A stretch of DNA of 20,000 bases. It comes from an uncultured virus (IMG/VR IMGVR_UViG_3300021499_000001). Taxonomy: Duplodnaviria; Heunggongvirae; Uroviricota; Caudoviricetes. Numbering within the stretch: position 1 is the stretch's first letter; the number at the start of each line of letters is the position of its first letter. The stretch lies in the IMG/VR virus record IMGVR_UViG_3300021499_000001. One strand, given 5' to 3'. This document shows positions 448-20,000 of the stretch, one piece after another. The notes under the pieces are model-generated. The model was given only the letters and a program-made list of their open reading frames with translations. It was not told the origin of the DNA and made no database searches. Made by a program: the position numbers and the translations under genes.

Positions 448-3400
448 ATGGGTTTCTCAATAATACCATCGGATCATTATATAAAGCCCGGTCGGATAAC
501 AGCAGCAGATATTAACCGGGCGTTTGATGATATAAATAATAGGCTTGGTGGCTCAAATTATGTTTTACCGCTTCTTGTTGCAGATACCAATATTATTTAT
601 CTTTCGCGCATTAGTGAATGGGGTCCTGATGATGTTGAAGTACATGTGAGAGATGTGACCCCTTATTCTACTGATCCAGCAACAAGGACAGGTACGCTAA
701 AGATATTGCCAAGTATTCCTACCGGTAGTTGTGTAAAGGATACCTCCACATGGGAGATTACTATTGAAGGTACGACGATTGGATCTGGGACGTTTGATGG
801 AGCAACGCATGAGTTTAGTGGTATAGCTTTATATGGTAAGACGATAACAGTACATTTTCATTTTGATTTTGATGATTCGGTTGGATTTTTAGACGTAAGG
901 GAGAAGGTTTTATTTAATTTCCAGCTTGCTGTAGAAGCGTTGACTGATGCTACTGATAAGCCCTGGAGTTATTATACAATTGTTGGACGCGCCGAACCAC
1001 TGCCTTCATTTGCGTCTTCATATCCCCATGTGCTTGTCAGATTTGATTCAAGGGTTGTTGAGACAGATGCTACAGGGACGGCTATGGTTACTGGTACCGT
1101 GTACTTTTCGTGGGGTAGTGATACGACAGGTACACATTGGGAGATCTATAAGGTTATTGATGGTACGGAGACATTAATATCATCAGGAACTGATGCTATA
1201 TCAGAAAAAAATTTTAGTTTTAATGTTACTCTTACGGATGAGCGGGAGAAGGAGGTTATTTTAAAGGTTATTCTTGGTAATAGTACATTTCCTAATGTGA
1301 CTTTTACTGATAAGTGTTGGGTGATAACTGATATATCTAATGCTTTACCTCTGATTGAACAGATACCTTCATGTGTTGTTATGCCCCCACTGTGGGAGTC
1401 ATTCTATACTGTTGGTTCGAGTACTTATGTCTATACATTCTATCTAACTACATCAGCTACCCATTGGGTTGGTGTTGATGATGATAAGCGCGCGCTTAAG
1501 TTAGATATAGAGAACGACAATTATGAGATCAGGAAAACTGATGGTACATGGGCAACAATCGCTGATGCCGTTGAGAAAGTAATAGCTATTGCCCATACGC
1601 GTAATGCTAGTGGTAGCGAAAATATTTATGTATATGATCCTTATACATTAGATAGTTACATCTATGCAGGTGATGGTAACATACCTTCCGGGGAGACCTT
1701 ACTATATGTTGATTTTCTTGTAATGTTATCAAAGCAATATGATTACAGTTACATCAAATCACCCGGCGGTACTTATACCTATAATGACAGTCCTATAGAA
1801 TTTTTATATACAATAGCTGAACATGATACTGGTTTTACAGTTGTAGGTAGCAGGTCACATACGACTCATGTGCATTATTATCCTATTTTGTCATCTTGTA
1901 TTGCATTTTTTGATCCTACTAATATCAGCATGGAAAGTGGTGGTGGTGTTAGCACCCTTAGGGCTATTATTTTGAATGCTCCGTTACAGGAAGCCGATCT
2001 TATAAAATATGGGTTTATTAGCAGTTCTGCATCACCAACGTCGAAAATTGAATATCAGTATGTTATATCATGTCTGGAAGCCCCTGCGGGGATGACAGTT
2101 GAGATATATGATGATAGTGATAGCGACTGGCATCCTATTACATCAAGTAGTTATACCATTGATATAGGCGAACTTGATGGTGTACCGGCTTATTACAGTT
2201 TCCCCGTACGTGTTGTTGGTACTACTACAGCTAATATTTTATTTAATGTGGAATTAGTTGCCAAATATCACGATGCGTCGGGTACTGTTTCAACAGTATT
2301 AATAGAGCGCAGACATATAGCATTGGCTACGTTTTTATCTGGGGGCGCGGCGGCTTATGCAACCTCTCTCTCATTACCCCGCACTAATTTCATGGTTTTT
2401 GTTGGTGGATATGGTATGGGTATACCGACGATTGCGAAACCAGATGTTAGTGATATTTACTTAGATAGCAGCACTCATTTGTATTATCTTGGGCTCATCG
2501 CTCGCGAACCATTGAAAATTGCTTATGGGGACACTATAGAAGATATCATAGGAGGTGAATCAAGACTTGGTGGTGTAACACTAGAGGATATATCAGCATC
2601 CATGCTTGGGTATCGTCTTGATATGGATATTTTATTACCAGCGGGAGTGCTAAAGAGTGAAATCTATGTTGCTTATGATCCATCATCAAAACATATCATA
2701 ATAAGTAGCGAGTTTACAGGTGGTTGTATTCCTATAGGTGTATTAATAATTGAACGTTATGCTGAAACATTGTATCCGTCGTTGAAATTCATCCCCTATG
2801 TACACACGTATGTATATGAGGCAACACGTGGCTTAGAGGTGGGCCGCTTCGGTTTGGTGGACAAGGTTGGGGCAGATAGTCCTGTTATTGTTGCGACAAC
2901 ACATTTTGAAAATGCTGATGATTTGACAAATTTGCTTGCGCTTATGAATATTGGTGATAGTTGTTTGCTTATTGGTGAGAATTATGCGAGTAGCGATTCC
3001 CTGAGATTCCCTTATGTGATGGGTGTAAGGAAGCTTGCGGAGGATAAGGTAAAGCTTACGATGCTTACTGATGTGGGTATGGCAACTGTTTTAATGGAGA
3101 GTGCTAGCAAGTATGTTTATCCAGTATTAGATGTATTTAGAATTTATTATTTGGATGCATCCGGATCTCTACATACAGTCCCACCACCTATGGGGGCGGT
3201 ATATACAGGTTCAGCTATAACTGATACCCTTGTGCCATTAGCTGATTTGGGTGACGATCGAAAAATATTAGAAAATATTGGTGAGAAAGTTGTTATCATA
3301 GTTGAGCCATACATATATGTCGATAAAACTCTTTTACCTGATCCAAATATTAATATTATGAAAATGGAAGTTGTGTGCTCTGGTTCATATTCGATGGGTA

Positions 3401-4613: not shown

Positions 4614-5025
4614 TATTGGTGAGACAGCCATTATACCGGTTTTATTTTTTGATGAGTCATATAGTCTGATGGATCCTGTTGAATTGGAAGGGGAGTATGT
4701 TACCCTTACGATGTATCGTCTTGATGCAGCACCGTCTGTAGCGAAATTTATTGATAACTTTAAATGGATATACACAGGGGCTGCAGGCTTGTACGATCTA
4801 GAGGTTGTTGTTGAGGAGAATATACTAAGTGGTGGAGATTATTATATTGGGGCAACGAGATATGATGTGGGTATTTATGCATTAAAGGTTAAGCCGCGGC
4901 TTCCTGGCACTTATTATATTGTTGTAGAGGCTCATGCATCTGGTCTTGCTAGTGAATGTACTTTACAAACCTTTACCGTAAGATTCATAGAGAAGAGAGA
5001 TCCATCATTATTATTAATGGAATGA
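4606..5025 (+). CDS. Small Ig-like beta-sandwich hypothetical protein (139 aa)
   Basis: ATG 4606 follows purine-rich GAAGGAGAGGAGG (4591-4603). Contains 'GIYALKVKPRLPGTYYIVVEA', an Ig/filamin-like Y-x-x-x-x-x-P-x-x-x-G-x-Y pattern. Confidence 0.7.
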   Translation: MYSIGETAIIPVLFFDESYSLMDPVELEGEYVTLTMYRLDAAPSVAKFIDNFKWIYTGAAGLYDLEVVVEENILSGGDYYIGATRYDVGIYALKVKPRLPGTYYIVVEAHASGLASECTLQTFTVRFIEKRDPSLLLME

Positions 5026-5923: not shown

Positions 5924-6153
5924 TACGTAGGGAAAGAGAAACATATGCTGGGGCTGTCTATGTAACTGGTATACCGCTGCCTCTGACACCAAGAGCGTTT
6001 GATGGATTATACATCGGGGGACTTCTTTTGCCTTACTATGTCCCCAATGAATTCTATGATCGGTTGCAGACAGATACTGTTAACTTTATAAATGCTGTCT
6101 TTGACTTCTGGAGGCCGGCGGGCTTATGTCACTACGTCTATTTGAAAGATTAG
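5920..6153 (+). CDS. Small protein (77 aa) with a baseplate-wedge-like C-terminus
   Basis: ATGA-coupled start and fills the gap between neighbours. C-terminal 'FINAVFDFWRPAGLCHYVY' resembles the helix-PA(G/H)-strand ending of P2 gpI/Mu gp48-type baseplate proteins (pattern recognition only). Confidence 0.55.
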   Translation: MIRRERETYAGAVYVTGIPLPLTPRAFDGLYIGGLLLPYYVPNEFYDRLQTDTVNFINAVFDFWRPAGLCHYVYLKD

Positions 6154-7337
6154 GTCTAGGAACAACTGATATAGATCGGACGATCGATATCCTATTAGAG
6201 TTGCGTGATGCGCTTCAGCAGCTATCTAGGTGCGAGAAGCGCAAGCTATTAGAATCATATACTGATTTTGGTGGTTATCCATCTGATTTCAAGGAGCTTG
6301 TTGCCTTATTAACAAAGATCGAGGCATATGTTGAACTGATTGAACAGCGTTATCCTGCATTTAAGCAGTTCATCGATGATGTTCTTCGGTCACTTTATGA
6401 TGTAAGACATCTTACATCTAGTGCTGTTTTTTCCTATATGGATGGTATTAATATCGATTATTATCCAGCACCTCATCTGTCATCTGTAACCGAAGAGGTT
6501 GATGTTAATGATATAGATGTTAGTGTTGTACCTTATACAGAGGATATCGAGGTTGGTGAGCATTTTATTGCATGTAGTCTTGAGCGTCAGGATAACATAC
6601 AAAAGATTATATTATCTTTTAAATCTCCTATAAAGGCAACACGGATATGGATGCCAATTTTTGGTGCTAAGGTTGGGAGACTGCTTATTAATACAGTAAG
6701 CGCGGGCTTCGATTACTGGTATGGATACATTGTGCCAATCCATAGGGTTATTAATGCTGATGATAAGGTAACTATTGTTGTGGAGATGATGATGAAGCCG
6801 CGCTTCGAGGCTGTTAAGAAGCCGGCCGATGTGTGGAAATTATATAAAAAGCCTACTTGGATTGGAGATGCGGTTATTTTGAAGCCGCGCTTGGTATTAG
6901 ATATATCATCAGGCGCGGGGCTTCTTGAAACAACAACATTACCAATGGTATTCGGCGATAATGGTAGTGTTGTACCGTTTGTCAAGGTAAATGGAATTTA
7001 TTTCCCTGCAATTAGTCGTGAATATAGTGGATTACCATTTCCATTTCACTATGATGGGCGGTATTATTATTTCCCTATTTATACATCTGGTGATTTCACA
7101 TCTAGTACGCCTCTTATGGGATATCGTACTGAGTACCGGTTATTTAAATCGTCATCACTTCCGGAGTTATCATATGAGGTTGATTTTTCAGGATTTACAC
7201 ACTGGGTGTTTTGGAATCCTTGGAAAAATAAAATTGAAGCATATCCTTCGGAGGGATTGTTTGCTATACCTCATCTTGAGAGTGAGTTGATTATGATGCC
7301 GCCTCCTCCGACGGAATTGCCAGAGGCGCATGAATAG
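6126..7337 (+). CDS. Hypothetical structural protein (403 aa), helical N-terminus plus beta-rich C-terminus
   Basis: Long ORF in the operon. The first ~95 aa are L/E/R-rich amphipathic helix, the remainder is beta-like, and the tail is Pro-rich (MMPPPPTE). Confidence 0.8.
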   Translation: MSLRLFERLGLGTTDIDRTIDILLELRDALQQLSRCEKRKLLESYTDFGGYPSDFKELVALLTKIEAYVELIEQRYPAFKQFIDDVLRSLYDVRHLTSSAVFSYMDGINIDYYPAPHLSSVTEEVDVNDIDVSVVPYTEDIEVGEHFIACSLERQDNIQKIILSFKSPIKATRIWMPIFGAKVGRLLINTVSAGFDYWYGYIVPIHRVINADDKVTIVVEMMMKPRFEAVKKPADVWKLYKKPTWIGDAVILKPRLVLDISSGAGLLETTTLPMVFGDNGSVVPFVKVNGIYFPAISREYSGLPFPFHYDGRYYYFPIYTSGDFTSSTPLMGYRTEYRLFKSSSLPELSYEVDFSGFTHWVFWNPWKNKIEAYPSEGLFAIPHLESELIMMPPPPTELPEAHE

Positions 7338-7345: not shown

Positions 7346-7747
7346 ATGGCAAGAGATATTGAATATAGGACATATGAGCCATATGAGATACCGCGTGATG
7401 TCAGTCCTATATGGGTTGCGCCCCATATTGGCGACTTCGATGCTTATAGTATTTATAACTATTATCTATCTTATGTTGTTGAGAAGGTTTTGAGGTTACC
7501 ATATGTTGATATTAAGGATGAGGTAGTACAACAGGGGCCGGGCTTATTCATCCCCGGTAAATATATCTTCCGTATCAAGCGTTTTGTTGCTGATGATGCG
7601 GTGCCAATTTACAGATTAAGAAAGGGCATCATTTATGTTTATGAGGAGATTAATAATATTCAAGTTTTAGAGGCTATTGTTTTGGATGAGCTTAAGTATG
7701 CGGCGGGCTTAATCAATGATGGAACATTTGGGCCTTATCTCAGATGA
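7346..7747 (+). CDS. Hypothetical protein (133 aa)
   Basis: ATG preceded by AGAGG, 8 nt after the upstream stop. ATGA overlap with the next gene. Confidence 0.75.
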   Translation: MARDIEYRTYEPYEIPRDVSPIWVAPHIGDFDAYSIYNYYLSYVVEKVLRLPYVDIKDEVVQQGPGLFIPGKYIFRIKRFVADDAVPIYRLRKGIIYVYEEINNIQVLEAIVLDELKYAAGLINDGTFGPYLR

Positions 7748-8469
7748 AGGTTTATAGGAAAATAGATGCGTTTCCCATAGGTGATGTTTTAACAGAGCTG
7801 TCTTCGATGATGTACAATGTAGATCAGACCGTTGGTCGTTTATCTCATGTTGTGGATAGGATCGATGGTGTTTCTGATTTATTTGATGAATATATAAAAT
7901 TATTGCAGACAGTAGCAATTTATACAGAAGATCTTATAGGATTTGGAACATTTGAGAATATCCCCTTGGATGCTGTTGAAACGAATGGTACTGTGATAAA
8001 TGGCAAACTCTATTCCTATGTTCCTGTTGATAGTAAGTGGATTGTTAAGACGACTGTTGAAGGTCATTTATATATGGATGGTAGTGAGGTACCGATACCA
8101 AGTGAGTGTGTTGCTGAGGGGCATATAGTATTTTATGAAGGTGGTACTACGGAGGTGTTAAATCCGACAAATGTTGGGATGCTCTTTGATCGTGATATAA
8201 GTAAGGCATATCACTTGGAGGTTGCTGTTCCGGTAAATTATGAAGGAAGGATGGCACGTATTGCTGATGCATTATTTAAGATTAATTTGCAGCCAAGAGA
8301 TGGCATGGTTTTTGTTGGTGAGCTAAGGATTTATGTTAAAAGTGGTAGGATTAATGATATTTTAATTAATGGAGTATCAAGGATGGTTGATTTGAAGTTT
8401 AAGGAACCATATATGGTATTAGAGGTTTTTGATGAGGTGGGAGACATATGGATTTACCTGAAATCATAG
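7744..8469 (+). CDS. Hypothetical protein (241 aa), coiled-coil N-terminus plus beta domain
   Basis: ATGA-coupled. Heptad-like 'LTELSSMMYNVDQTVGRLSHVVDRIDGVSDL'. Confidence 0.8.
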   Translation: MKVYRKIDAFPIGDVLTELSSMMYNVDQTVGRLSHVVDRIDGVSDLFDEYIKLLQTVAIYTEDLIGFGTFENIPLDAVETNGTVINGKLYSYVPVDSKWIVKTTVEGHLYMDGSEVPIPSECVAEGHIVFYEGGTTEVLNPTNVGMLFDRDISKAYHLEVAVPVNYEGRMARIADALFKINLQPRDGMVFVGELRIYVKSGRINDILINGVSRMVDLKFKEPYMVLEVFDEVGDIWIYLKS

Positions 8470-8678
8470 GATCAAGATTATCGAACATTTCTGGTATGTG
8501 GATAAAGTTAGACCGGGAAGTTTTTGGCAGGAATATTGATGTATTTTTTGCGGAGTGGGTATCAAGAGATTATGATCGTCGTTTGGCTTTTGCTTTATGC
8601 AGTCATACGGAAGATAGTGCTGAAGGATTTAGGTATCAAGCACCAGATCTTTCACCTACCCCGAGAGGGGGTCTGTGA
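8448..8678 (+). CDS. Small hypothetical protein (76 aa)
   Basis: GAGGTG upstream of ATG 8448. Fills the gap between neighbours, and its TGA overlaps the next ATG (TGATG). Confidence 0.6.
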   Translation: MDLPEIIGSRLSNISGMWIKLDREVFGRNIDVFFAEWVSRDYDRRLAFALCSHTEDSAEGFRYQAPDLSPTPRGGL

Positions 8679-10564
8679 TGAGACCATTTATCGAACGCAT
8701 AGTTCAAGACTATTCTGATAATTATGCATCAGTGTGGCGGTATTTAGAGGAATTTACAGATATCAAAGGGATATATTTTGATTTTGTTCCTACATCATTT
8801 AAGCGTTACTATGGACCATGGTATCCATTAGAATTTAGGGGGCATCGCTTTTTCTATATAGATCAAGATTCTCCATTCTATCCATCTGATGTACTTGTTT
8901 TCTCACCATATCATATTGAAACAAGAGGTGATGCATTTTCATATCAGCAGACATCTGATCCATGGATACCAGTGATATTTTCTTATGATAATGTAAAATT
9001 ATCTATATATGGTGATGTTGTTTATAAGTTAAAGATAGGGGATAGCTTACAGGTATTTATACCTTTCTTACCTTTGATAGGGAAAATAACAGGTGATTTT
9101 TATTGTTCATATAGCGGGAAAAAGTTGTTGTATGTGTATCCTACTGTTGGTGGATTGAGCAGTGGGGTTGGTTGTATTACAACGCATACAGGCACGGGTG
9201 CAGCAGATACACGCTTTCCTGTATTGCATCCATTTGATCTAGATAGCGAGTTATCGTGGGATCAATTACTTGTTGAGTATCCCGGTATTCACTGCTTGAT
9301 ACCTAGTAAGGTATCGATAGTATTTACAGATGTTATCGATGTGAATTGGGATGAATTAAATGGTGAAGGTTGTGTTTGGTGGGAATCAGGAATACCATAT
9401 CTTCTACCTAGAATTGATGCAAAAGCTATTAAGATGCATTTATTTTCCGTGTCGGGAAGTAATGCTTATTGGAATATTGTTGTATCAGTACCATCTTATT
9501 CTATTAATAACATTATTGATTTGTTGATGAATGAAACTCATTCAGTTGATGAGGAAGTTGCACCAACATGGAATGATAATGTTCTTATTTATGATTTTAG
9601 TGATTTATTTATATATACTGGGATATATAAGCTTGAAGGGAGGGTGAATTTTTGTTATAGTGGTACTATTATAGAGACAGATATTCCTATTTCATTTGGG
9701 GTGCTACATATTGGGGATGTTGATGTTGAAATAACCAAAAAGACATATGTAAGTACTGGGGCAACTATTGTAACATACACCATAAGTAGGGGATTTGTCG
9801 AGTGTGATAGATTGAAGTATGAGATTGCTTGGAAAGAGGGGATGGAAACAAGGTATATGGAATTGGGATATTCAATCGGACAATTAGATGCTTCACGTTC
9901 GGCAACGGATTTTAAGTTACGCATTTATTACAATGATGAGTTGGTGAAAATAATTGATATTACAGACATCAATGAAATAATGATTAGTGATGTACCTTTG
10001 CCAATTGCTTATTACATATCTAATGAGAACCGAGTGCATGTTGAGTGGGATAATGAGACATATGAATGTTACGAAAGACTCATTAATATAACGGGTACCA
10101 CATCATGGGTTGCCCTATCATCATCTCCTTACGATTGGTATCCTGCTGTTGGTGTTAACCTTGCTGCTATTTATAAACTTAAGCATAGAACACTGGGAAT
10201 AGAAGGACCGAGTATTACAGTAGAAATTAATAATGAGTTAGTGCGTACTGAGATTGTTGATGTCAATCGCAAATACATAGAAGTCGGTGAGATTGAGATT
10301 GACGCTTATGCGCGCAGGCCTCAGCTTTATTTTGTCTATGATACAGTTATCCCCAATGGGGCGGCGGGCTTCAAATTCCTAGTATATGGTGACTTTGATG
10401 AAGCTAATTTATCTTACAGTTTTGATGGAGTACACTTTCAGCCATTTACCATGGGTGATATTATCTATTTCCCTGAGGTACCAAATTTAGATCATCTATG
10501 GGTACGGTTTGAATCAAGTAATGTTAGATATGTGCAAAGTGCATATATTAAGTTTATCTTTTAA
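8678..10564 (+). CDS. Hypothetical structural protein (628 aa), aromatic and beta-rich
   Basis: Long ORF. GAGGGGGT at 8665-8672 favours ATG 8678 over GTG 8675. C-terminal 'LSYSFDGVHFQPF' is an Asp-box-like turn common in phage structural beta domains. Confidence 0.8.
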   Translation: MRPFIERIVQDYSDNYASVWRYLEEFTDIKGIYFDFVPTSFKRYYGPWYPLEFRGHRFFYIDQDSPFYPSDVLVFSPYHIETRGDAFSYQQTSDPWIPVIFSYDNVKLSIYGDVVYKLKIGDSLQVFIPFLPLIGKITGDFYCSYSGKKLLYVYPTVGGLSSGVGCITTHTGTGAADTRFPVLHPFDLDSELSWDQLLVEYPGIHCLIPSKVSIVFTDVIDVNWDELNGEGCVWWESGIPYLLPRIDAKAIKMHLFSVSGSNAYWNIVVSVPSYSINNIIDLLMNETHSVDEEVAPTWNDNVLIYDFSDLFIYTGIYKLEGRVNFCYSGTIIETDIPISFGVLHIGDVDVEITKKTYVSTGATIVTYTISRGFVECDRLKYEIAWKEGMETRYMELGYSIGQLDASRSATDFKLRIYYNDELVKIIDITDINEIMISDVPLPIAYYISNENRVHVEWDNETYECYERLINITGTTSWVALSSSPYDWYPAVGVNLAAIYKLKHRTLGIEGPSITVEINNELVRTEIVDVNRKYIEVGEIEIDAYARRPQLYFVYDTVIPNGAAGFKFLVYGDFDEANLSYSFDGVHFQPFTMGDIIYFPEVPNLDHLWVRFESSNVRYVQSAYIKFIF

Positions 10565-10575: not shown

Positions 10576-11997
10576 ATGACAGAAGATAAGTTACTACAAC
10601 TAATACATAATGGGGAGTTTGATGATTATATTGAAACGCTGAATCTTAGGATTAAAAAGTTGCGCAATATAGCTGATGATTATGCAAAGTTAATGGATGC
10701 GATAGAAACAAGTTTTATGTATGATTTAGATATTATCCAAAAGTGGAGCATACATGTCCTACGTGACTATCTGAGGAAGAGATTTGATGTTGTATGGGAG
10801 TGGAAGATCTCTGATTGGGATTTGGCTAATATAAAGGCGCAGTTAGCTCACAGTATTGTTGTTGATGGTGTGATGATTAAAGATCTTTATATTTTAAATG
10901 GCAGAAGGGTTACATTCGAAGGTACATATCATAATTTAACAGATGTTAATGAGGATACATACTTCCGTATCCATGGTTACCGTCAGGCAGCTGTAGCTTT
11001 CCAGATACAGATTAGTAAAGGGGTAAAATATTTAGCAATAAACATGTTCCCCCGTTGGCATCAGTATGTATATTTAATGTCGACTGATGGGCGAAGGTTA
11101 TCTAATACAGTTCTCAATGCTGGAATTATCCTTATACCAGTAAAGGAGCCTGGCGATTATTTCCTTGTTGTTGGTGAGTTATTTGATAGAGAAAGCATCA
11201 TAATGATATCGGATATTATTGCGTTGGGGGAATATCAGGATGTACCAGAGGTTACGTTCTCGTGGAAGCCGGCGGGCTTCTACAACTATTTCTTTGCTTA
11301 TCCATTATTGGCAGGTAAGACGGCTTTGAAGGTAACAGATGGTACTAATAGTGTGGATATTTCATATGGTATTAACTTTATACAAAAGTGGATGGTTGAG
11401 GAGTCTGAAGCCCATGCTTCAACCAGCATTGATTATTTAGGGACCCATTACGATAAGGCTTATTTAGTGGATTCAATATCACCTATTGTTGCCAAAAAGA
11501 TGGAGGGGGAGCGGCTTATTTACTATTTCCCCAAGTTAACCACTGTTAAAGGAAATGGCCGGCTTTTACAACTTGATCTAACCTGGAGATTCACGCGCCC
11601 TATTGACATTGATGGTGAAAGATCATTAATCGGTGTTTTTAAGTCTGATGGTAGTGATTTTGAGATTGACGGCATCTATTTATCATTTAGTGAGCCTTTA
11701 TATTTCATTGACAGAGATTATTTTTATATAAAGGATAGCAGGGGGCATATATATCTTGTATTTAGACGTGATCCAAGTGAATTAGAAGCTGGTGATGCGA
11801 TATACTGGTATAATCTAAAGGATATGAGCATTAAGGTTAAAGCAACACATGGTGGTGTGTTGTTCATGGGTTCGGATAACACATTGTTACCATTGGCACC
11901 TAAGCGTCCAATCAATTTTGAGTTAGGCGGTTATGGTGAAGGTCCATTATTAGCCCCTGGTGGAACTCCTATGGAAGAAGAAGAGGAAATATCATGA
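10576..11997 (+). CDS. Hypothetical structural protein (473 aa), helical N-terminus plus beta-rich body
   Basis: Long ORF. N-terminal coiled-coil-like 'IETLNLRIKKLRNIADDYAKL'. Acidic C-terminal tail EEEEE whose GAGG can serve as the SD for the next gene. Confidence 0.8.
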   Translation: MTEDKLLQLIHNGEFDDYIETLNLRIKKLRNIADDYAKLMDAIETSFMYDLDIIQKWSIHVLRDYLRKRFDVVWEWKISDWDLANIKAQLAHSIVVDGVMIKDLYILNGRRVTFEGTYHNLTDVNEDTYFRIHGYRQAAVAFQIQISKGVKYLAINMFPRWHQYVYLMSTDGRRLSNTVLNAGIILIPVKEPGDYFLVVGELFDRESIIMISDIIALGEYQDVPEVTFSWKPAGFYNYFFAYPLLAGKTALKVTDGTNSVDISYGINFIQKWMVEESEAHASTSIDYLGTHYDKAYLVDSISPIVAKKMEGERLIYYFPKLTTVKGNGRLLQLDLTWRFTRPIDIDGERSLIGVFKSDGSDFEIDGIYLSFSEPLYFIDRDYFYIKDSRGHIYLVFRRDPSELEAGDAIYWYNLKDMSIKVKATHGGVLFMGSDNTLLPLAPKRPINFELGGYGEGPLLAPGGTPMEEEEEIS

Positions 11998-13010
11998 AGA
12001 TTGATGCACAATATTTTGAAAATTATTTCAAGCAATATGCTGCACTTGCGCATGATATCTCCAATCTTGTTGCTTATTACCAGAATATAACAAACATATA
12101 TGATGCATTTGGAAGTGCTTTATCTGTGTTCTTCCCTGTTGAAAAGGATGAGTATTTTGTAGCTAACAAAACATTAAGGACCGTTGAATCGATTTTATCT
12201 CTCACACACCATGTGGAAACCGAGCTATCCTTTATCCGCCTGAGCACCAGTACTAACTTAAGAGTCATTCCGGCTGTTGAAAGGACTATTGGTATTAGTA
12301 GTGTCAGAGAAGCACATGGTGTTACAACATCTATAACATATGGTGCAACGAGCCGTGAGCCATTATCATTGATAAACAGAATTTTTGTAGACGAATCACT
12401 TTATTGTGAATTGCTGTTACCATATACGGACCAATGGATTCTTGATGTAGGGTTTACTCTTATGGAAACAACCCATTGGAATACGTTAAAAGTTTTGCAA
12501 ATTCCGCCAATAGTTGTCAATATAGACAGCATTGAGGTTGGTGGTATTAATTATGAGCCTTATAATAGGCAATATCCTCATCTATTTCAGCTTCCTGATA
12601 CAGCAATTAATGCATTTAAAATCACAGGTTCATCTGCTGAAATCATTGTGAGCGGGGCTTCAGCTTCAATCATCGGATTCACACACATAGGAGTTTATTA
12701 TAGGCGTTATCATACATATGGTGTATTTAATGCTTATTTCCATAATGATACAGATAGAGAGATATCCGTAAGTCCTGTGTATTATATACCACCTCAGTTG
12801 TATGAGGATTATGACACTGATAGTGATATTATCATTGTAAAGTTATATAAAACAAGTACCTCACCATCGGGATTTGAACTGATTTGGACATCTCTATCAC
12901 CGACATCGATTATCCTTGATGCTGATAGTGATATATATGTTGAGGTTGAGTTAAGAGGGAATGAAAAATATACGCCTTTATTTTATGGTATTAAACTTAT
13001 AGAGGTCTAA
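11994..13010 (+). CDS. Hypothetical structural protein (338 aa)
   Basis: ATGA-coupled, helical N-terminus. C-terminal 'VEVELRGNEKYTPLFYGIKL' resembles the terminal TP-strand motif of phage tail/baseplate beta-sandwich proteins (inference). Confidence 0.8.
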   Translation: MKIDAQYFENYFKQYAALAHDISNLVAYYQNITNIYDAFGSALSVFFPVEKDEYFVANKTLRTVESILSLTHHVETELSFIRLSTSTNLRVIPAVERTIGISSVREAHGVTTSITYGATSREPLSLINRIFVDESLYCELLLPYTDQWILDVGFTLMETTHWNTLKVLQIPPIVVNIDSIEVGGINYEPYNRQYPHLFQLPDTAINAFKITGSSAEIIVSGASASIIGFTHIGVYYRRYHTYGVFNAYFHNDTDREISVSPVYYIPPQLYEDYDTDSDIIIVKLYKTSTSPSGFELIWTSLSPTSIILDADSDIYVEVELRGNEKYTPLFYGIKLIEV

Positions 13011-13314: not shown

Positions 13315-14569
13315 TTATATTGAGGATGATAAGGCAACCGTTTTCTATGCGGCTTCAGATGATGAGTTACCAGCAATTTTATTCAAGGTTAATGATCATT
13401 ATGAATGTATGTATGTGCATGGGAGAGGCCGGCCGGCTTCACTAACATCTGGTTATGTGAGACTCCCTCGTGCTAGTACTCGTTATTATCACATAAGAAC
13501 GAAATCTATTGACAGAAACATTTATGAAATTGTCCTACCGCGCCCACGGACCGGGATTGTTGCATTATATGACCTACAGTCTGATACGTTTGTGCATGAG
13601 CTGCATTTATCAGAGCCAACAACTGATTTCGAGCATATCGTTGTTGATATTGCTGGTAACATGTTACGCATCCATATCCCCGATAAGGTATATGGTGATT
13701 GTTATGTTACATATCATAGCACATCCACACCACCCTCACAACCCAATATTGTAACATCATTTCCTATTGTGAAAAATGGGACATATAATGTTGAGATAAC
13801 AGAGCCGGGCCTCTACAACATTTACGTTAGAGATAAATCAGGTAATCTGTTGGGGCCTCATGCTGCTTATTATGATCCAACATTTGATAAGAAGATTGTT
13901 CTATCATCCTTAAGGCAGGTAAGTGGGGTTGTCGTGGGCACTGTTAAAAGCAATTATTATCCTGTCGTTGTTTTTAGGTGGATGGGTGAATTAGATCGGT
14001 ATGTATATTTAACTACATTATTCGAGGGGCAGGATTATTTTGTAGATGAGGATCCATTCTTTGGGCAGAATATTTATGCATGTGGTTACACGAAGGAGGG
14101 TGAGGCATTTCTTGTATCTTCAGCTAGTTTGGTATTTTATCCTTGTGAGTATCTTACTGCTCCATTTCTATCCGTTGCTAGATTAAGTGAGGAGGATTTA
14201 TACATGGAAGTAACAAGGATTATTGAGCATGTTATCGTCAGAGATGGGCTACGCACGGCACGCGTTACTGTTTATCCCAATCCCGATGCAAGCGGTTCGT
14301 ACACAGTCCTTGATGATAGTACTGATTATCCACTCTCTCACTATGGTGATGTATTAGTCGACAGGAAATATGTTTTTGTTATTAATAGATCTGGCACATC
14401 TATTTATGTTGCCCCCAATACAGTTTCAGGTAGTGACATTATTTCAACAGGCATAGAGATCCCTAATAATACTTATAAGATATTGGAGATAGAGACACTT
14501 CCAATGCTTTTTAGGCTTTCCAGTAGCCCATCGGCAGGTGGTAAGGTAATTATATGGGAGGTTGGCTAA
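13295..14569 (+). CDS. Hypothetical protein (424 aa) with an Ig-like segment
   Basis: Long ORF containing 'NGTYNVEITEPGLYNIYVRDKSGN'. Its stop overlaps the next ATG (TAATG). Confidence 0.8.
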   Translation: MWILSNSYIEDDKATVFYAASDDELPAILFKVNDHYECMYVHGRGRPASLTSGYVRLPRASTRYYHIRTKSIDRNIYEIVLPRPRTGIVALYDLQSDTFVHELHLSEPTTDFEHIVVDIAGNMLRIHIPDKVYGDCYVTYHSTSTPPSQPNIVTSFPIVKNGTYNVEITEPGLYNIYVRDKSGNLLGPHAAYYDPTFDKKIVLSSLRQVSGVVVGTVKSNYYPVVVFRWMGELDRYVYLTTLFEGQDYFVDEDPFFGQNIYACGYTKEGEAFLVSSASLVFYPCEYLTAPFLSVARLSEEDLYMEVTRIIEHVIVRDGLRTARVTVYPNPDASGSYTVLDDSTDYPLSHYGDVLVDRKYVFVINRSGTSIYVAPNTVSGSDIISTGIEIPNNTYKILEIETLPMLFRLSSSPSAGGKVIIWEVG

Positions 14570-14799
14570 TGATTGGATTTGCGCGGGTTAATGAGTTTTT
14601 TGATGTTACAGAAAAAAACGGTATAGCTAATAAACTATCTGATGCAATAATAAGGCAGATAGCTATGGAGAAGCCGGCTTCATATAGATTAGATGGGCAT
14701 GAGCTTAAGGTTGAGTATATCGTTGATGACGGCTACGGACTGCTTATTCTATTCCGTCCTAATATGCAACAGTTAGTATATATTAGAGATGGGAGATAA
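14569..14799 (+). CDS. Small hypothetical protein (76 aa)
   Basis: Start reassigned from 14554 to ATG 14569 (TAATG overlap, SD GGAGGT at 14557-14562). Begins MIGFARV. Confidence 0.7.
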   Translation: MIGFARVNEFFDVTEKNGIANKLSDAIIRQIAMEKPASYRLDGHELKVEYIVDDGYGLLILFRPNMQQLVYIRDGR

Positions 14800-15127
14800 G
14801 GATAACATCAGGTTGTTATTGGAGGAGATGTTAAGCCGCCTTGGTGATAAGCATATTAGTAATGGTGATGCTGAGATTATAGCTAGGGCTATTACGTCCC
14901 GTCTGAAACCGTTTTTTGATAATGTAATACTACGCACAGTACAGAAGGTATCAGGTAGCGATGAGATTTCTAAGGAGATCCAAGAACTACATGATTTAAT
15001 CAATGATAGGTTTACTGAGTTGCAGGTTGAGGTTGTGAAGAAGAAGGATACGATTTATTTATTAGCTAATTTAATTGCGCTTCTTGCCAATGTTATCTTG
15101 CTAGTTTTTAATCTGATGCCGAAGTAA
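14789..15127 (+). CDS. Coiled-coil protein with a single C-terminal transmembrane helix (holin-like/tail-anchored, 112 aa)
   Basis: Helical soluble region, then KKKD, then hydrophobic 'TIYLLANLIALLANVILLVFNLM' at the C-terminus. Confidence 0.7.
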   Translation: MGDKDNIRLLLEEMLSRLGDKHISNGDAEIIARAITSRLKPFFDNVILRTVQKVSGSDEISKEIQELHDLINDRFTELQVEVVKKKDTIYLLANLIALLANVILLVFNLMPK

Positions 15128-15157
15128 AGGAGCCCTCTATGAGGGTATAAAAATGCG

Positions 15158-17536
15158 ATGCTTTTATTATGGACAAATATCCCGGAAGCACGGGGATATA
15201 TTGTTTATAAAGCCCCTCACTTTGTCTATCCAACAGGGAAGTTATCGGAACCGAAGTGTGTTTGTAAAGGGGATAGTGATACATCGGATCCAGGTTTTAG
15301 CGTGCCCTCCTATGTTGATGATGGATTAAAGGGATTTTTAAGCCCGCCAGAAGGTTATAATTTTTATGCCTATACCGAAAGCAATCACTTAGAGGTTGAT
15401 ACAGGTGTCTATGTTGTTGTTGCGATTAATGGTATTTGTGCATCAAGTTATTCAAATCCTGTTAGCATTGTTTCCGAGTTGGAAGAAAAAACTATATCAG
15501 TAGCTATAAGAGAGGTGCCTGTTGATGATACTGTTGTAGCCAAGCGTTTCTGTCGGTGGGGTGTATTTTTAACAAAAGTACATTGGAATTTTAATATTGA
15601 TAGCATTATAAGTACTGACTATAATGTTGACATTGAATTCAGCACTCTAACCAGCGGTTCCTTTGTACTTACTGGTGTACCTCCTACTGGTAGTGAGGAT
15701 GTATCAAGTAGGTCATTTTATAAGTATGCTTTCGAGCCATTAGTCATTAAGGTCAGCACTGATGGCTGTTCTATCAGTCAAGTAAATATTGCTATCGATG
15801 TTGTTTTGATTGAATACCCACTAGATGTTATAAGGGTTGCCCTAGAGAAAACAACGGTTATAGATCGTTTTGATAAACCCGAGCCATCCTTAGATTATGT
15901 CACAACGGGTTATCTTAGGAAGCCATTGATATTAGATTGGATTTATGTCGACACATCTGGTTCTTTAGATGCATATTTATTATTGCATAAGCGCGGGCTT
16001 TATCACCACTATGGTTTGTCATTGGATAATAAGTTTAAGCCACCGCTTATTTTAAGTGATACGGATGATCTAGCACTATATACCAAGGGTGATCCAGGTT
16101 CTGTAGTTATGGTAAGTGAAGGCCCGCTTCAGGTAAAGCAGGATAAGTTACCTGACATGAAGGATGTTTATTTTGAGGGCGGCTTCCTCTTAGGGCATGA
16201 TAGAGAAATAAGACGTATATATCTGTTCAAGGGGGCAATTAAACATATTGATGTCCAATTTTACAAGCAGCATGATGATGCCGAACTGACGGTTTATACA
16301 CCACAGGCGGGGCTTCAAACATTTTTCATCCCTAAGGATATATTATCTGCGCAGTTCGTTACAGATATTCCATTTGATGCTGGTTCATATGTAATAATAA
16401 GTTCAACAGAAGAGCATCCTATTACTGTGGATTGTGATGTGCGTATTGAGATATGGAGAGAGTATCCACCTTGCATATGTGAAATTACTGTTGAAGAGGA
16501 GGAAGAGGAGGGTGCGCGGCCTCTCATTTACGATGGCACTTATTTTGAAGGCGGGGCTAATGGCTGGCGCTACAAGACATATCCTTTCCAAGCACATCTA
16601 TCAAAGGTGATGTTTCTTGGACATGACTTGTTTGATGTACCTGTGCGATACAATTTCTATATTAATGGAGATCTGGTAAAGACATATGATCTTAATTTCT
16701 CAACTAGCCGCCTTCTGCAATTTGATGTAGATATAACAGTCCCAGCTAATGGTGTCCTTGTTATCGAACAGATTATTATGGATCGTACAATGTATGAGGT
16801 TACAAGGGATGTTGATGTCATATGGTCGCTTACCTTTGAGGGTGAAGGAGCATATATAGCAACATACACGGCGGCTGATTCTGTGCTCTTGAATTCGCCA
16901 TCATCTAATAGTACAACAGAATTCCAGCTTATTGATGCTATTACATTTCCACATGCTGTTCATTTGACAGGCATGAGTGCTTCGGCGGCTTCTGGTAGTG
17001 ATAATGCTGTATACAAGGTTGAAATACCGGATTTAGACATTAGCTATGAATTTACAGGTACATATCTATGTGACCCTGTTGTAGAGGTACCGCCTTATAC
17101 TGCTATAAGGGCTTATTATAAGGTTGATGACCCTGAAGGAGGTGAGGTTGCATACCCACAAGTCCTTTTGCATATAGGCTTTTTGGCTGAACATGAGGAG
17201 TTTGTTGATCTTGATAATGTGGGTATATTTTGGTTGAGAGAGCATAGCGGGAGTCTGTATGACACTATTACTCATCAGCTTGCTTTGCCGAGTGGTACTT
17301 ATAGGTGCATCTTCTTGCAGGCATCTGTTTACCAAACGCCACTGGATGAAGCAGATATTATTATTGATATAGGGGGGAGCGGAGATACTCTTAATGTGAA
17401 GCCGGGGCTGCATAACATTTACAAAACAACGGATTTCACCTTTGGTAATATGGATACGGTTACAGTTAATTCAAGCGACCCGCGGCTTATGCACGGTATT
17501 GTTATCATGGCTATCTATCAGAAGGTTGAGACATGA
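15158..17536 (+). CDS. Multi-domain beta-sandwich protein (792 aa) with an N-terminal FN3-like domain, putative tail fibre/receptor-binding protein
   Basis: 'LLWTNIPEARGYIVYK...VYVVVAINGICASSYSNPVSI' matches the fibronectin type III pattern. Has an E6 linker and a repeated YFEGG. ATGA overlap with the next gene. Confidence 0.7.
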   Translation: MLLLWTNIPEARGYIVYKAPHFVYPTGKLSEPKCVCKGDSDTSDPGFSVPSYVDDGLKGFLSPPEGYNFYAYTESNHLEVDTGVYVVVAINGICASSYSNPVSIVSELEEKTISVAIREVPVDDTVVAKRFCRWGVFLTKVHWNFNIDSIISTDYNVDIEFSTLTSGSFVLTGVPPTGSEDVSSRSFYKYAFEPLVIKVSTDGCSISQVNIAIDVVLIEYPLDVIRVALEKTTVIDRFDKPEPSLDYVTTGYLRKPLILDWIYVDTSGSLDAYLLLHKRGLYHHYGLSLDNKFKPPLILSDTDDLALYTKGDPGSVVMVSEGPLQVKQDKLPDMKDVYFEGGFLLGHDREIRRIYLFKGAIKHIDVQFYKQHDDAELTVYTPQAGLQTFFIPKDILSAQFVTDIPFDAGSYVIISSTEEHPITVDCDVRIEIWREYPPCICEITVEEEEEEGARPLIYDGTYFEGGANGWRYKTYPFQAHLSKVMFLGHDLFDVPVRYNFYINGDLVKTYDLNFSTSRLLQFDVDITVPANGVLVIEQIIMDRTMYEVTRDVDVIWSLTFEGEGAYIATYTAADSVLLNSPSSNSTTEFQLIDAITFPHAVHLTGMSASAASGSDNAVYKVEIPDLDISYEFTGTYLCDPVVEVPPYTAIRAYYKVDDPEGGEVAYPQVLLHIGFLAEHEEFVDLDNVGIFWLREHSGSLYDTITHQLALPSGTYRCIFLQASVYQTPLDEADIIIDIGGSGDTLNVKPGLHNIYKTTDFTFGNMDTVTVNSSDPRLMHGIVIMAIYQKVET

Positions 17537-18447: not shown

Positions 18448-18448
18448 T

Positions 18449-18455
18449 AGGAGGT
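18449..18455 (+). promoter_or_regulatory. Shine-Dalgarno site
   Basis: AGGAGGT 4 nt upstream of ATG 18460. Confidence 0.8.
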
Positions 18456-18459
18456 AATA

Positions 18460-20000
18460 ATGAAAATATTAAAAATAATAGGAGCTATCTTACTGTTGTC
18501 ATCGATGGCGTTAGGTGTTGTACCGGGCAAGCTTATGTATATGGGAAGGTTGGCTGATGCCGACAATCATGTTGTTAATGGATATGTAGAGATGAGGTTT
18601 AAGTTCTATTCAGATAGCACAGGGACAACGCCTTTTAAAACGATTGAGTTTGTTGGTGATGATTCCATTGAGGTTTCGGCAGGTTACTTCTTTGTTGTTA
18701 TGGATTTATCAGATGTTATTGATTCGCTTAATCAGACAGTGTATCTTGAGGTTGATATTTATAATAAAGGCACATCTAGTTGGGAAACATCTGCAGAGAG
18801 GGAGAGGCTTGTAGCGCAGGTGCCTTATACGATATGGGCCCGCCGATCGGCTGTTGCTGAGACTGCAAATGTTGTTGGTTCTGGTGCTGTGCAGACAAGC
18901 ATGCCTATAACAGGTGATGGCACATCTGGTAATCCAATTTCGCTTACATATGGTTCGGGGCTTACACTTTCAAGTTCGGTGCTAATTATAGACTTTGATA
19001 ATAGCACTATTGATACCAATTCATCAGGTCAGATTAGAGTTAAACCGGGTGGTATAACATCAACAGAAATTGATGATGATGTGACATTTACTAAGATTCA
19101 AAACTCATCTGGGACACTGCAGTTTGTTATTACTGATGGCAATACTGCACTACAGTTTGCAGCATCTGGGATCAATAGTGTTAGTTTTGATTCTGATAAC
19201 CATAGAGTTACATATACAGCAGAGGCTAATACCAATGTACCTATTACAGGTGATGGTTCATCCGGATCACCTATTAGTTTAAATTATGGTAATGGACTTA
19301 CATTATCAGGATCGGATCTTATTATTAATGAGAGTGATATCCCATATACACCATCGGATGTGTCTGATTGGGATGGTAGTACAGATCCTGGAAATGTGAA
19401 CGATGCATTGGATCAATTAGCTAGTAGAACTGCCAATATTGAGAGTGGTAGCAATAATAATTATATCCGCAATCAATATTCATCTGCGCAAGCAGCAAGT
19501 TTTTGGATTAATGGAAAAGGTAAAGCTAGTCAATTAATTGCTGATGATGAATTCTTATTAGGCGATGTATTAAACATCTATCTAAGTAGTGATACAGTAT
19601 ATTATGTGTCTGATTCTGTACTGTGTTTTGGTGGGGGCTTAATTATCGAAGAAGACAATGATGTGAAATTAACGGGTGATCTTTATATTCCGAATGCTAC
19701 TGTGAATACTGCAGCAAGTACATTATTAGCTATAACAAATGGCAAAGTAGAAAAAATTCTAAAGTCAAGTGTTACGGCTGGTGTGTCTTCTATTACAGGA
19801 GGACTTGGTCTAGAACCCGATGATGCATCTACAGGTGACATTACTATGACTGTTGACATGACAGAGCTTTATCTTAAAGGACTGGTAGCAACTACATATG
19901 ATTCGTTAAGGGTAAAAATAGATGGTAATACAATATGTTTTGGTGGCTCTAATGAATTACAAATTTGTTATGGTGGTATATCAACAAATCATATTAGCGA
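18460..20000 (+). CDS. Secreted trimeric-fibre/adhesin-like protein, 3'-truncated (at least 513 aa; absent from the ORF track)
   Basis: Hand translation is open to the window end: MKILKIIGAILLLSSMALG-VVPGKLMYMGRLADADNHVVNG...RERLVAQVPYTIWARRSAVAETAN...PITGDGTSGNPISLTYGSGLTL...DWDGSTDPGNVNDALDQLASR...NYIRNQYSSAQAASFWING...GVSSITGGLGL...GGISTNHIS. Strong SD and a signal peptide. Confidence 0.85.
   Translation, partial: MKILKIIGAILLLSSMALGVVPGKLMYMGRLADADNHVVNGYVEMRFKFYSDSTGTTPFKTIEFVGDDSIEVSAGYFFVVMDLSDVIDSLNQTVYLEVDIYNKGTSSWETSAERERLVAQVPYTIWARRSAVAETANVVGSGAVQTSMPITGDGTSGNPISLTYGSGLTLSSSVLIIDFDNSTIDTNSSGQIRVKPGGITSTEIDDDVTFTKIQNSSGTLQFVITDGNTALQFAASGINSVSFDSDNHRVTYTAEANTNVPITGDGSSGSPISLNYGNGLTLSGSDLIINESDIPYTPSDVSDWDGSTDPGNVNDALDQLASRTANIESGSNNNYIRNQYSSAQAASFWINGKGKASQLIADDEFLLGDVLNIYLSSDTVYYVSDSVLCFGGGLIIEEDNDVKLTGDLYIPNATVNTAASTLLAITNGKVEKILKSSVTAGVSSITGGLGLEPDDASTGDITMTVDMTELYLKGLVATTYDSLRVKIDGNTICFGGSNELQICYGGISTNHIS
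18904..19326 (+). repeat. Two-copy intragenic protein repeat (29 aa) at 18904-18990 and 19240-19326
   Basis: PITGDGTSGNPISLTYGSGLTLSSSVLII versus PITGDGSSGSPISLNYGNGLTLSGSDLII. The DNA is diverged at synonymous sites. Confidence 0.9.

Follow-up and report, generated by a model that had tools for sequence, protein, structure and literature searches.

A GC-rich oriented word iterated throughout the genome of an orphan hydrothermal-vent phage, and its candidate readers

The window, its phage and an over-represented word

The window analysed here, a stretch of 20,000 nucleotides from an uncultured virus of the Caudoviricetes (IMG/VR IMGVR_UViG_3300021499_000001), carries within its genes a short GC-rich word, SSSSGCTT (S stands for G or C), together with the reverse complement AAGCSSSS, and it is this word that concerns us. 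The word occurs 38 times in the window, 25 times on the + strand and 13 times on the - strand, and the 25 + positions that a first-pass annotation had counted by hand were all exact. The same annotation had put the expectation at about one site per strand, which agrees with the mean of 2.37 for both strands (sd 1.49, maximum 8) in 200 dinucleotide-preserving shuffles of the window, none of which reached 38; the excess is 16-fold. The window covers bases 185-20000 of a 55,558-bp contig (G000) and is part of a myovirus-like orphan phage of about 176 kb from hydrothermal-vent communities. Two close relatives, one of 175,796 bp that is rated complete (G001) and one of 147,433 bp (G002), and three further close-relative contigs (behind loci L037, L055 and L167) were available, and the sequenced strains of the lineage diverge by 2-8%. 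Taking the evidence together, we consider it very probable that the whole genome carries a selectively maintained word, an oriented half site that is used in all frames and in non-coding DNA too, and that has skewed the proteins.

The proteins of the window have few recognisable relatives. None of 18 window proteins matched Pfam at E <= 0.001 (one weak match, E 0.006, was under its cut-off), none of the 12 that were scanned matched PHROG, and the 403-aa product of open reading frame (ORF) 6126-7337 gave one cluster among 5.8 billion proteins. The large ORFs of the window (proteins at 448-19998) probably encode tail or fibre proteins of the orphan lineage, because in G001 this region comes after the baseplate J gene. 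Outside the window, G000 encodes a family B polymerase, a fused DnaG-type primase/DnaB-like helicase, a superfamily 2 (SF2) helicase, a family-4 protein of the uracil-DNA glycosylase (UDG) superfamily, an Hjc-like resolvase, a sigma-like protein and a DPPY methyltransferase, to which G001 adds portal, baseplate J, class II ribonucleotide reductase (RNR), ThyX, dUTPase, a RecA-like protein, two RNase H proteins, PhoH, an M15 peptidase and TnpB. Judged from protein comparisons, the lineage is isolated: its family B polymerase has a single distant relative (28% identity), and the best matches to named phages are only about 22% identical. No tRNA genes were found, no Rfam families were present in the first 140 kb of G001, and P0003 had no match among viral contigs. 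A host search with TnpB among genome contigs gave one match, 28% identical, and the taxa of the RNR atlas were uninformative on the host.

The runs containing the window carry metagenome labels (hydrothermal vent, marine or sediment) and are all kept as contigs; no RNA run was listed among them. The proteome of G001 has an IVYWREL fraction of 0.427, with 2.3% Q and 4.0% N at 38% GC, as compared with IVYWREL fractions of 0.383-0.405 for nine word-less loci of the polymerase B clade. According to a formula reportedly given by Zeldovich et al. in 2007, a fraction of 0.427 would correspond to about 65 C. The amino-acid composition of the phage is thus thermophile-like, and the family-4 type of its UDG fits as well.

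The excess is not confined to the window. When the k-mers of G000 were ranked against a first-order Markov model, the top words all belonged to one family (observed vs expected: GAAGCCG/CGGCTTC 42 vs 2.1; AAGCCGCG/CGCGGCTT 19 vs 0.3; GCGGGCTT 17 vs 0.5). G/C runs of length 8 number 43 in G000, with 9.5 expected from composition, and runs of at least 8 number 63 vs 18. Extended by the next base (M stands for C or A), SSSSGCTTM occurs 232 + 177 = 409 times in G001, or one site per 430 bp, against 7 + 6 = 13 occurrences of a reversed-pattern control (about 30-fold), and 192 + 142 = 334 times in G002, against 7 + 7 = 14. The word is therefore genome-wide, as had been proposed.

The first-pass annotation had further held that the word is read in all frames and is not explained by protein sequence, and this was borne out by shuffles of 55 greedily chosen ORFs, which make up 96% of G000 and were counted on the sense strand. 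These ORFs contain 70 SSSSGCTT and 41 AAGCSSSS. Synonymous shuffling (300 shuffles) left 7.2 +- 2.6 (maximum 16) and 8.5 +- 2.5 (maximum 16), respectively; codon permutation left 4.4 and 4.2; and a context-preserving shuffle, which keeps the amino acid, the codon family and the next base, left 19.4 (maximum 29) and 17.7 (maximum 27). With the context-preserving shuffle, the 20 genes lying wholly inside the window had 30 sites in both orientations vs 10.0 (maximum 18), and 12 vs 6.2 for AAGCSSSS alone, a number that was matched in at least one shuffle. In the 55 ORFs the word falls in all three frames (33/25/12 for SSSSGCTT and 25/7/9 for AAGCSSSS), and in the coding sequence of G001 the word is found 377 times vs 35.6 after synonymous shuffling (10.6-fold). 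Since the excess survives three kinds of shuffle and all frames are used, an artefact of codons, codon pairs or peptides is ruled out. So is an assembly artefact, which the first-pass annotation had itself named as grounds for dropping the idea, because the same sites recur in G001 and G002, which were assembled independently, and in contigs of four more runs, which come from four studies. Over the window, the contigs of these four runs are mostly at least 95% identical, and none of the 40 differences listed, out of a set that holds 293 more, falls in a site.

The word has left its mark on the proteins of the phage. The proteins offer 780-781 positions at which the sense form could be written with synonymous codons and 362-365 for the antisense form, of which 256 and 118, 33% each, are realised. 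After permutation of the amino acids within each protein, the potential falls to 508 +- 24 and 271 +- 15; the unrealised potential is thus about the chance level, and the realised sites are therefore extra. GC-rich codons that are otherwise rare make up the word, which also causes peptides such as [AGPR][GR][FL] to be over-used. In other words, the word has skewed the protein sequences of the phage.

As regards anatomy, the sites are G/C runs preceded by (G/T)AA and followed by TT(C/A), for instance GAAGCCGCGGCTTC, TAAGCGCGCGCTTA and GAAGCCGGCGGGCTTC. The base 3' of GCTT is C in 60% and A in 32% of 117 half sites. The arrangement AAGC-N(k)-GCTT is found 15 times with k=4, 7 times with k=3 and 6 times with k=6, vs 1.2 expected, its interiors being nearly all G/C; the inverse order, GCTT-N(k)-AAGC, shows no enrichment. 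Roughly one half site in three is paired in the enriched way, back to back on opposite strands with one shared run, as KAAGC-S(0-9)-GCTTM (K stands for G or T). The 59 full sites of G001 have spacers of 0-9 with a mode of 4 (24 sites), 25 of the 59 read as perfect palindromes, and of the 24 four-base spacers 11 consist of CGCG. The other half sites, about two thirds, are solitary, and the opposite end of their run shows no distinctive sequence. Among the 816 G/C runs of at least 6 in G001, 389 are flanked at least once (53 on both sides, 197 on the right only, 139 on the left only), and the boundary of the run is sharp rather than graded. Because the spacer is variable and solitary half sites are conserved, the unit is the oriented half site, namely a G/C run of about 6-9 ending in GC, followed by TT and then by C or A; the word length is 9-16 bases.

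The first-pass description, AAGC-Sn-GCTT plus its half site, thus stands in both parts, with the refinements that the next base is C or A, that spacers of 3-4 are preferred and that the run is not wholly degenerate. Each of the 16 G/C tetramers is found in front of GCTT among the 409 sites of G001, always above a dinucleotide-model expectation (1.6- to 95-fold, with GGCC at only 2 vs 1.2). CGCG (78), GCGG (69), GCCG (60) and GGCG (46) account for 253 of the 409, GGGG (8), CCCC (5) and GGCC (2) are rare, and G stands directly before GCTT in 317. At G001 66028-66082 (L008:6028-6082), in non-coding DNA, four half sites are arranged as two interleaved inverted repeats, GAAGCCCGC...GAAGCGCGC...GCGGGCTTA...GCGCGCTTA; no second cluster of this kind was seen, and the structure may be regulatory or resemble an origin.

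Conservation, turnover and orientation of the sites

Comparison of the relatives showed that the word is kept at synonymous sites. Between G000 and G001 (51,814 aligned bases, 7.6% divergent), third codon positions within the 8-mers were compared by Fisher tests with background G/C third positions, 23.4% of 5230 of which had changed. Changes were seen at 0/85 positions of full sites (p = 2.7e-10), 7/132 of sense-only sites (p = 4.4e-8) and 6/55 of antisense-only sites (p = 0.035). Between G001 and G002 (129,498 aligned bases, 3.95% divergent), 20 of the 624 third G/C positions in motifs had changed vs 1514 of 14749 overall (odds ratio 0.28, p = 2e-11). Whole 9-mers were altered in 25 of 311 cases (sense 13/167, full 4/60, antisense 7/60, non-coding 1/24), compared with 23.6% of 20,000 random coding and 26.1% of 11,519 GC-rich non-motif 9-mers, so that the rate of change in sites is about a third of that in comparable sequence. 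Because synonymous positions in sites are about three times better kept than other G/C positions, the word behaves as a functional nucleic-acid signal.

The word is also specific to the lineage. The nearest polymerase B clade (18 loci, 300 kb, 28-37% GC) has 5 sites vs 4 for the control. A scan of viral contigs with one 14-mer gave at least 116 stretches, and among the low-GC loci in the 80 loci examined the site-rich ones were all of this lineage. The first 50 kb of the Thermus phage phiYS40, an AT-rich (32.5% GC) thermophilic myovirus with its own DnaG-type primase, contain 1+1 sites and no excess of G/C runs. A side finding concerns L171 (also L169 and L170; with a polymerase B fragment of 29% identity), a contig of 46% GC in which GAAGCCGT/ACGGCTTC (10 vs 0.5) and GGCGTCGG/CCGACGCC (9 vs 0.3) are enriched. 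Its GAAGCCGT was set aside as a form of the same word, being without a G/C run or TT end, and the enriched words of L171 probably reflect a different effect or codon triplets.

These results bear on one rival explanation, according to which the runs are duplex-stabilising clamps that hold AT-rich DNA together when hot, the flanks being incidental. The vent habitat labels, the thermophile-like proteome and the excess of G/C runs of at least 8 would all suit it. However, only runs flanked by AAGC or GCTT are conserved, as unflanked runs of at least 6 change at the background rate (73/717 between G001 and G002); the flank is specific down to the base after TT; phiYS40 is without such runs in its first 50 kb; and bulk DNA of 38% GC stays unmelted at about 65 C. 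We consider this explanation highly improbable.

Site turnover provides a second line of evidence. The 40 variable entries listed for G000 and G001, two of which are one site, differ by substitutions alone, mostly synonymous, in 39 cases, with a 1-base gap beside the remaining one, and the word is present in G001 only in 30 of them and in G000 only in 10. Since turnover proceeds by substitution, with no turnover by insertion or deletion, an origin by mobile insertion is ruled out. The word does resemble the GC clusters of yeast mitochondria and the Rickettsia palindromic elements (RPEs), which are GC-rich palindromes in AT-rich genomes and can be genic. However, those are insertions of 30-150 bp with presence/absence polymorphism, and neither they nor miniature inverted-repeat transposable elements (MITEs) have a counterpart in a word of 9-16 bases with 39 of 40 listed variable positions being substitutions. 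The strain-variable segments of G000 (4,645 bp of the same GC content, including 8451-9903 of the window) contain no site vs 9.8 expected (p = 6e-5). Over 19.2 kb with G000 as outgroup, 37 sites are shared, 6 were lost and 5 gained recently, 8 are confined to G001 and G002, and 1 is confined to G000.

Turnover also bears on a mutational drive, which had been one of the options of the first-pass annotation. In such a case biased repair, for example by a mismatch glycosylase acting beside GCTT, would convert A/T to G/C, and the sites would be functionless. This could account for the depletion of the C>T variant SSSSGTTTM (16 vs 30.8), for the enrichment of the T>C variants SSSSGCCTM (100 vs 18.7) and SSSSGCTCM (37 vs 17.0), for the 3-5 clustered substitutions at several variable sites, for a word that overrides the amino-acid sequence and for the uneven split of the listed variable positions between G001 and G000; the phage also encodes a UDG-superfamily protein. 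However, one-off variants are not generally depleted: A/T-interrupted runs beside GCTTM stand at 0.99-1.54 times expectation, where a conversion drive predicts depletion. Furthermore, the run boundary shows no gradient, polarised gains number 2 (one substitution event) vs 0.99 expected, with 36 near-sites being too few for much power, recent gains balance recent losses, and unflanked G/C runs decay at the background rate; family-4 UDGs remove uracil, and a G:T-specific activity would be extra. A drive is therefore very unlikely in our view. SSSSCCTTM is likewise high among the one-off variants (59 vs 24), and its abundance and that of SSSSGCCTM show some tolerance in the word or extension of the run.

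The orientation of the sites follows that of the genes. Of the 409 sites in G001, 376 are coding, 258 (69%) in sense and 118 in antisense orientation, a bias that flips with gene direction, and the density on the sense strand is 1.6 per kb; the 33 non-coding sites, in 12.6 kb, have a similar density. The sense:antisense ratio of 2.2 is near the ratio of 1.87 in coding potential (508:271 in the permuted proteins), and conservation does not differ significantly between sense and antisense sites (p = 0.43 for G001/G002 and p = 0.21 for G000/G001). Because the ratio is close to that of coding potential and conservation differs without significance, an intrinsic strand dependence is not shown.

Spacing is near-Poisson, with a coefficient of variation (CV) of 0.93 as compared with a 5-95% range of 0.915-1.08 for random placement, so regular spacing was rejected. 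Convergent, hairpin-type pairs within 13-60 nt are not in excess (12 vs 12, 16 and 12 for the other arrangements), and long-range hairpins were rejected on this ground. An intrinsic terminator was rejected as well, since only two T follow the run, then C or A in 92%, and 376 of the 409 sites lie in ORFs.

An element acting at the RNA level, such as an mRNA hairpin, a pause, a processing site or a translational pause at rare codons, could draw on the prevalence of sense-oriented coding sites and on the rare GC-rich codons that make up the word. Nevertheless, conservation extends to antisense and non-coding sites (changed in 7/60 and 1/24 cases vs 23.6%), the word occurs in each of the three frames, solitary half sites cannot self-pair and hairpin-type pairs are not commoner, the two T are no terminator, and the orientation ratio equals that of coding potential. 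We find an RNA-level element scarcely credible; plain thermal clamps and RNA-level roles are both largely excluded.

Candidate readers of the word

The word is probably read by some DNA-handling machine. Within the word itself, the degenerate G/C run points to a read-out of stability or groove shape, and the CTT(C/A) end points to base-specific recognition. The first-pass annotation had offered recognition, modification or mutational drive. A functional signal is upheld by the synonymous conservation, drive is disfavoured by the variants that are not depleted, and modification is disfavoured by the distribution of the only recognisable methyltransferase. This DPPY-motif enzyme (201 aa, G000:C1 54949-55554 on the - strand, L002:17949-18554, phrog_3816, no Pfam or NCBIfam match) is 97% conserved in G002, and it has no tblastn match in G001, the homology of G000 and G001 breaking at its gene. 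A scan of 123 further G001 proteins turned up no methyltransferase family. A methyltransferase-driven word was rejected, because G001 lacks the enzyme and has the word at full density, and any phage-encoded methylation-dependent mechanism seems unlikely from the gene content of G001.

Hyper-abundant, frame-independent genomic words are a known kind of element. What is new here is the oriented half site with its degenerate run, the palindrome with a variable spacer, the restriction to one phage lineage and the independence of a methyltransferase. The word differs from all of the DNA uptake sequence (DUS), Chi, the FtsK-orienting and matS words (KOPS/matS) and HIP1, as had been noted. The DUS of Neisseria and the uptake signal sequence (USS) of Pasteurellaceae are words of about 10 bases, present about once per kb, mostly genic, peptide-biasing and often in inverted pairs. 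However, they are fixed words driven by the uptake bias of a competent bacterium, and here the word is degenerate and sits in a phage genome that has no such route.

The cyanobacterial HIP1 (GCGATCGC) is likewise a GC-rich palindrome, hyper-abundant at about one per gene, used in any frame and selected within and between ORFs. It differs in being a fixed octamer of host chromosomes with a GATC core and two orphan methyltransferases, whereas the phage word has a degenerate run, an oriented half site, a variable spacer, a single phage lineage and a dispensable methyltransferase. HIP1 is described as 15-300-fold over-represented, conserved within and between ORFs and without a peptide or RNA role, and its function as still unknown (PMC5861425). 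By analogy, the phage word could be read on duplex DNA by a phage or host protein that acts in the nucleoid, in condensation, in packaging or in self-marking, and its role would then be architectural rather than enzymatic. Its 16-fold excess in the window, 10.6-fold over the synonymous shuffle and about 30-fold over the reversed control, its conservation in coding and non-coding DNA, the lack of detectable orientation dependence and the perfect palindromes with their CGCG spacers would all fit, and a degenerate G/C run may be expected of minor-groove or shape read-out. On the other hand, with 16 tetramers and 25/59 perfect palindromes it is no fixed palindromic octamer, spacers of 0-9 speak against one rigid dimer bridging the two halves, solitary half sites make up two thirds, and no candidate binding protein emerged from the Pfam and PHROG searches of the window proteins. 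HIP1 is tied to orphan methyltransferases (PMC4390886), and the only recognisable methyltransferase of the phage is absent from G001. We regard an architectural duplex word as rather unlikely.

Chi is another short, GC-rich, oriented and over-represented word, and one able to protect linear DNA. The half site could act in a similar way, stopping the degradation of linear DNA by a host helicase-nuclease of the RecBCD/AddAB type. G000 and G001 are circularly permuted relative to each other, and because such a genome has ends anywhere, a dense word in both orientations would be needed, with palindromic double sites guarding against entry from either side. The GC-rich oriented word on both strands, about one per 430 bp with near-random spacing, agrees with this idea, as does the conservation of full sites at least as well as of solitary ones. 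The commonest form, GAAGCCG, is one base from the Chi of S. aureus and contains most of that of B. subtilis. Lineage specificity and absence from newly acquired cassettes fit a host-specific word, and the absence of the word in phiYS40 is no argument against it. However, known Chi sequences are fixed 5-8-mers that are read base by base and are non-palindromic and strongly replication-skewed, and their enrichment in bacteria is modest, far below the 10-30-fold seen here; in the phage word, at least four positions take G or C and all 16 tetramers are enriched. A word of the Chi kind would also be expected to be skewed in the host chromosome. A Chi-like role appears rather improbable as well; if it, or another reading as a host word, were true, the word would be a host-prediction marker for an orphan vent phage.

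The reading that we prefer and put forward tentatively, one that the first-pass annotation did not list, is that the half site may be the start site of the phage's own fused DnaG-type primase-helicase. In this protein of 781 aa, DNAG_N and Toprim are joined to a DnaB-like C-terminal domain; towards the N-terminus, a Cys/His cluster, CPRYKEHAH...CFRCG, looks by eye like the zinc-binding domain of the DnaG type, and no family search matched that stretch. The 3' part of the half site, CTT/TTM, would be the initiation trinucleotide on the single-stranded template, belonging to the same class as the bacterial d(CTA), d(CTG) and d(TTA), with a start opposite the middle T and a cryptic 3' base. From there the primase would copy the G/C run into a primer pppA(A)GC-SSSS, whose GC-rich hybrid would be stable enough for about 60-70 C in a genome of 38% GC. 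Any G/C would be allowed in the run, because only hybrid stability would matter there, and the 3' part would be specific; palindromic sites would serve forks in either direction for the coding cost of one G/C run.

Several observations can be brought together in support of this proposal. A density of 1.6 sites per kb is on the scale of Okazaki fragments. The lineage specificity of the word (5 sites in the 300 kb of the polymerase B clade) is what a phage-encoded reader would predict, and the vent and marine sediment labels and the IVYWREL fraction also fit a primase site of this kind. The site of T7 primase is given as 5'-(G/T)2GTC-3' (PMC12839067). Bacterial DnaG is described as starting at the central base of the trinucleotides d(CTA), d(TTA) and d(CTG), the third base being cryptic and read by the zinc-binding domain, and most primers as starting with pppAG (PMC2978363). 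The primase of the hyperthermophile Aquifex aeolicus prefers all-G/C trinucleotides, d(CCC), which its authors take for thermal adaptation (PMC2532735). The layout of the word, a degenerate 5' part that the primase would copy and a specific 3' part, resembles that of the T7 and DnaG sites. The word would further share with known sites a 3' trinucleotide whose middle base is T and whose last base is cryptic, a G/C preference at the start in a thermophile and a zinc-binding domain as reader, and the phage encodes a primase of this type.

It should be noted that a number of points weigh against priming. The mechanism is one that we infer, and the likeness of the word end, CTT plus C/A, to d(CTA)/d(CTG)/d(TTA) is one of sequence only. 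Known primase sites have 3-5 bases, are frequent by chance and are not reported to be enriched or synonymously conserved. We know of no case of priming sites that are at least ten-fold enriched and shape codon choice, and literature searches for the word or for enriched priming sites gave nothing relevant. The sites show no strand dependence (258:118 is close to the 1.87:1 of coding potential, with p = 0.43 and p = 0.21 for conservation), and their near-Poisson spacing gives no sign of selected even spacing. Thermophily and AT-richness alone do not yield the word, because the first 50 kb of phiYS40 are without an excess, and the temperature estimate depends on the formula above and on a compositional proxy. 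Finally, the uneven tetramers and the G before GCTT suggest base-specific reading beyond stability.

That the phage has written GC-clamped primase start sites over its genome, across its genes and on both strands, paying for them with rare codons and altered amino acids, and so carries the first priming-driven iterated word, is a suggestion we make with low confidence. If it is true, a priming code, and not uptake, recombination or methylation, would drive a highly iterated genomic word, a HIP-like motif would gain a directly testable function, and replication initiation could shape codon usage and protein sequence. HIP1-like words have been without a settled explanation for decades (a 2018 study of HIP1 counted 20 years without a function). 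Most known examples are in cellular chromosomes, where many processes are confounded; here the word is in a 176-kb phage with few candidate readers, and its clear anatomy of oriented half site, degenerate run and CTT(C/A) end lends itself to concrete biochemical tests. Whichever of the priming and host-word readings holds, the word imposes a strong constraint at synonymous sites, which matters for gene finders and for analyses of evolutionary rates in this lineage.

Sites and variable segments of the window

The sites of the window are collected in the table, together with a strain-variable cassette that has none. In the last column, "pattern match" denotes a site identified by its pattern, and the L numbers are loci in which it was compared.

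Table. Full sites, solitary half sites and the site-free cassette, in window coordinates.
Feature	Position	Strand	Comparison
Full site AAGCGCGCGCTT, two half sites on one shared G/C run	1486..1497	- 1486-1493, + 1490-1497	same in L003, L004
Full site AAGCCGCGGCTT, perfect palindrome	4891..4902		same in L003, L004
Full site AAGCGCGGGCTT	6698..6709		same in L003, L004
Full site AAGCCGCGCTT	6795..6805		pattern match
Full site AAGCCGCGCTT	6882..6892		pattern match
Full site AAGCCGGCGGGCTT, spacer 6	11266..11279		same in L003
Full site AAGCCGGCTT, spacer 2	14671..14680		same in L003
Full site AAGCGCGGGCTT	15989..16000		same in L003
Half site ending a 14-base G/C run GGGGGCGCGGCGGCTT	2349..2356	+	pattern match
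Half site GGCCGCTT	2842..2849	+	pattern match
Half site GCGGGCTT, immediately 5' of the ATG of ORF 6126-7337	6118..6125	+	pattern match
Half site CGGGGCTT	6916..6923	+	pattern match
Half site CCGGGCTT	7538..7545	+	pattern match
Half site GCGGGCTT	7703..7710	+	pattern match
Half site GCGGGCTT, 12-base run	10364..10371	+	pattern match
Half site GCCGGCTT	11558..11565	+	four substitutions in or beside the site in L003, site still present
Half site CGGGGCTT	12653..12660	+	pattern match
Half site GCCGGCTT, 11-base run	13432..13439	+	pattern match
Half site GCCCGCTT	16122..16129	+	pattern match
Half site GGCGGCTT	16178..16185	+	pattern match
Half site CGGGGCTT	16308..16315	+	pattern match
Half site GGCGGCTT	16984..16991	+	pattern match
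Half site CGCGGCTT	17481..17488	+	pattern match
Half site CGGGGCTT	18956..18963	+	pattern match
Half site GGGGGCTT	19633..19640	+	pattern match
Half site (AAGCCCGG on +)	484..491	-	pattern match
Half site (AAGCCGGC on +)	6819..6826	-	pattern match
Half site (AAGCCGCC on +)	14833..14840	-	lost in L003 through two C>T changes
Half site (AAGCCCGC on +)	15340..15347	-	pattern match
Half site (AAGCCGGG on +)	17399..17406	-	pattern match
Strain-variable cassette, no site	8451..9903		no BLAST match to L003/L004; X6-run contig has 1461 other letters instead

The longest site-free stretch of the window, 7711-10363, lies around the cassette, which extends into a 629-aa ORF (8675-10564) and may be a receptor-binding module swapped among strains. 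In the last ORF of the window (18460-19998), the contigs of several runs skip or replace stretches of 70-187 bases between 19022 and 19846, which suggests a second variable or repetitive region.

Elsewhere in G001, 55-75 kb (the end of L007 and L008) form an island of 44-47% GC within the 38% GC genome, with many small ORFs, an SLOG/YspA protein, an RNase H, a dUTPase and a TnpB of the IS605 type (L008:14808-16052, - strand); the density of the word in this island is normal or higher. Two adjacent giant ORFs, L011:4650-10481 and L011:10481-17542, encode proteins of 1943 and 2353 aa without a Pfam match at E <= 1e-5. The most under-represented tetramers of G000, as judged by a maximal-order Markov model, are GATC (380 vs 571 expected), CATG (424 vs 605) and GGCC (112 vs 175), the last of which is also almost missing from the G/C run of the word (2 of 409), and these low counts resemble restriction avoidance.

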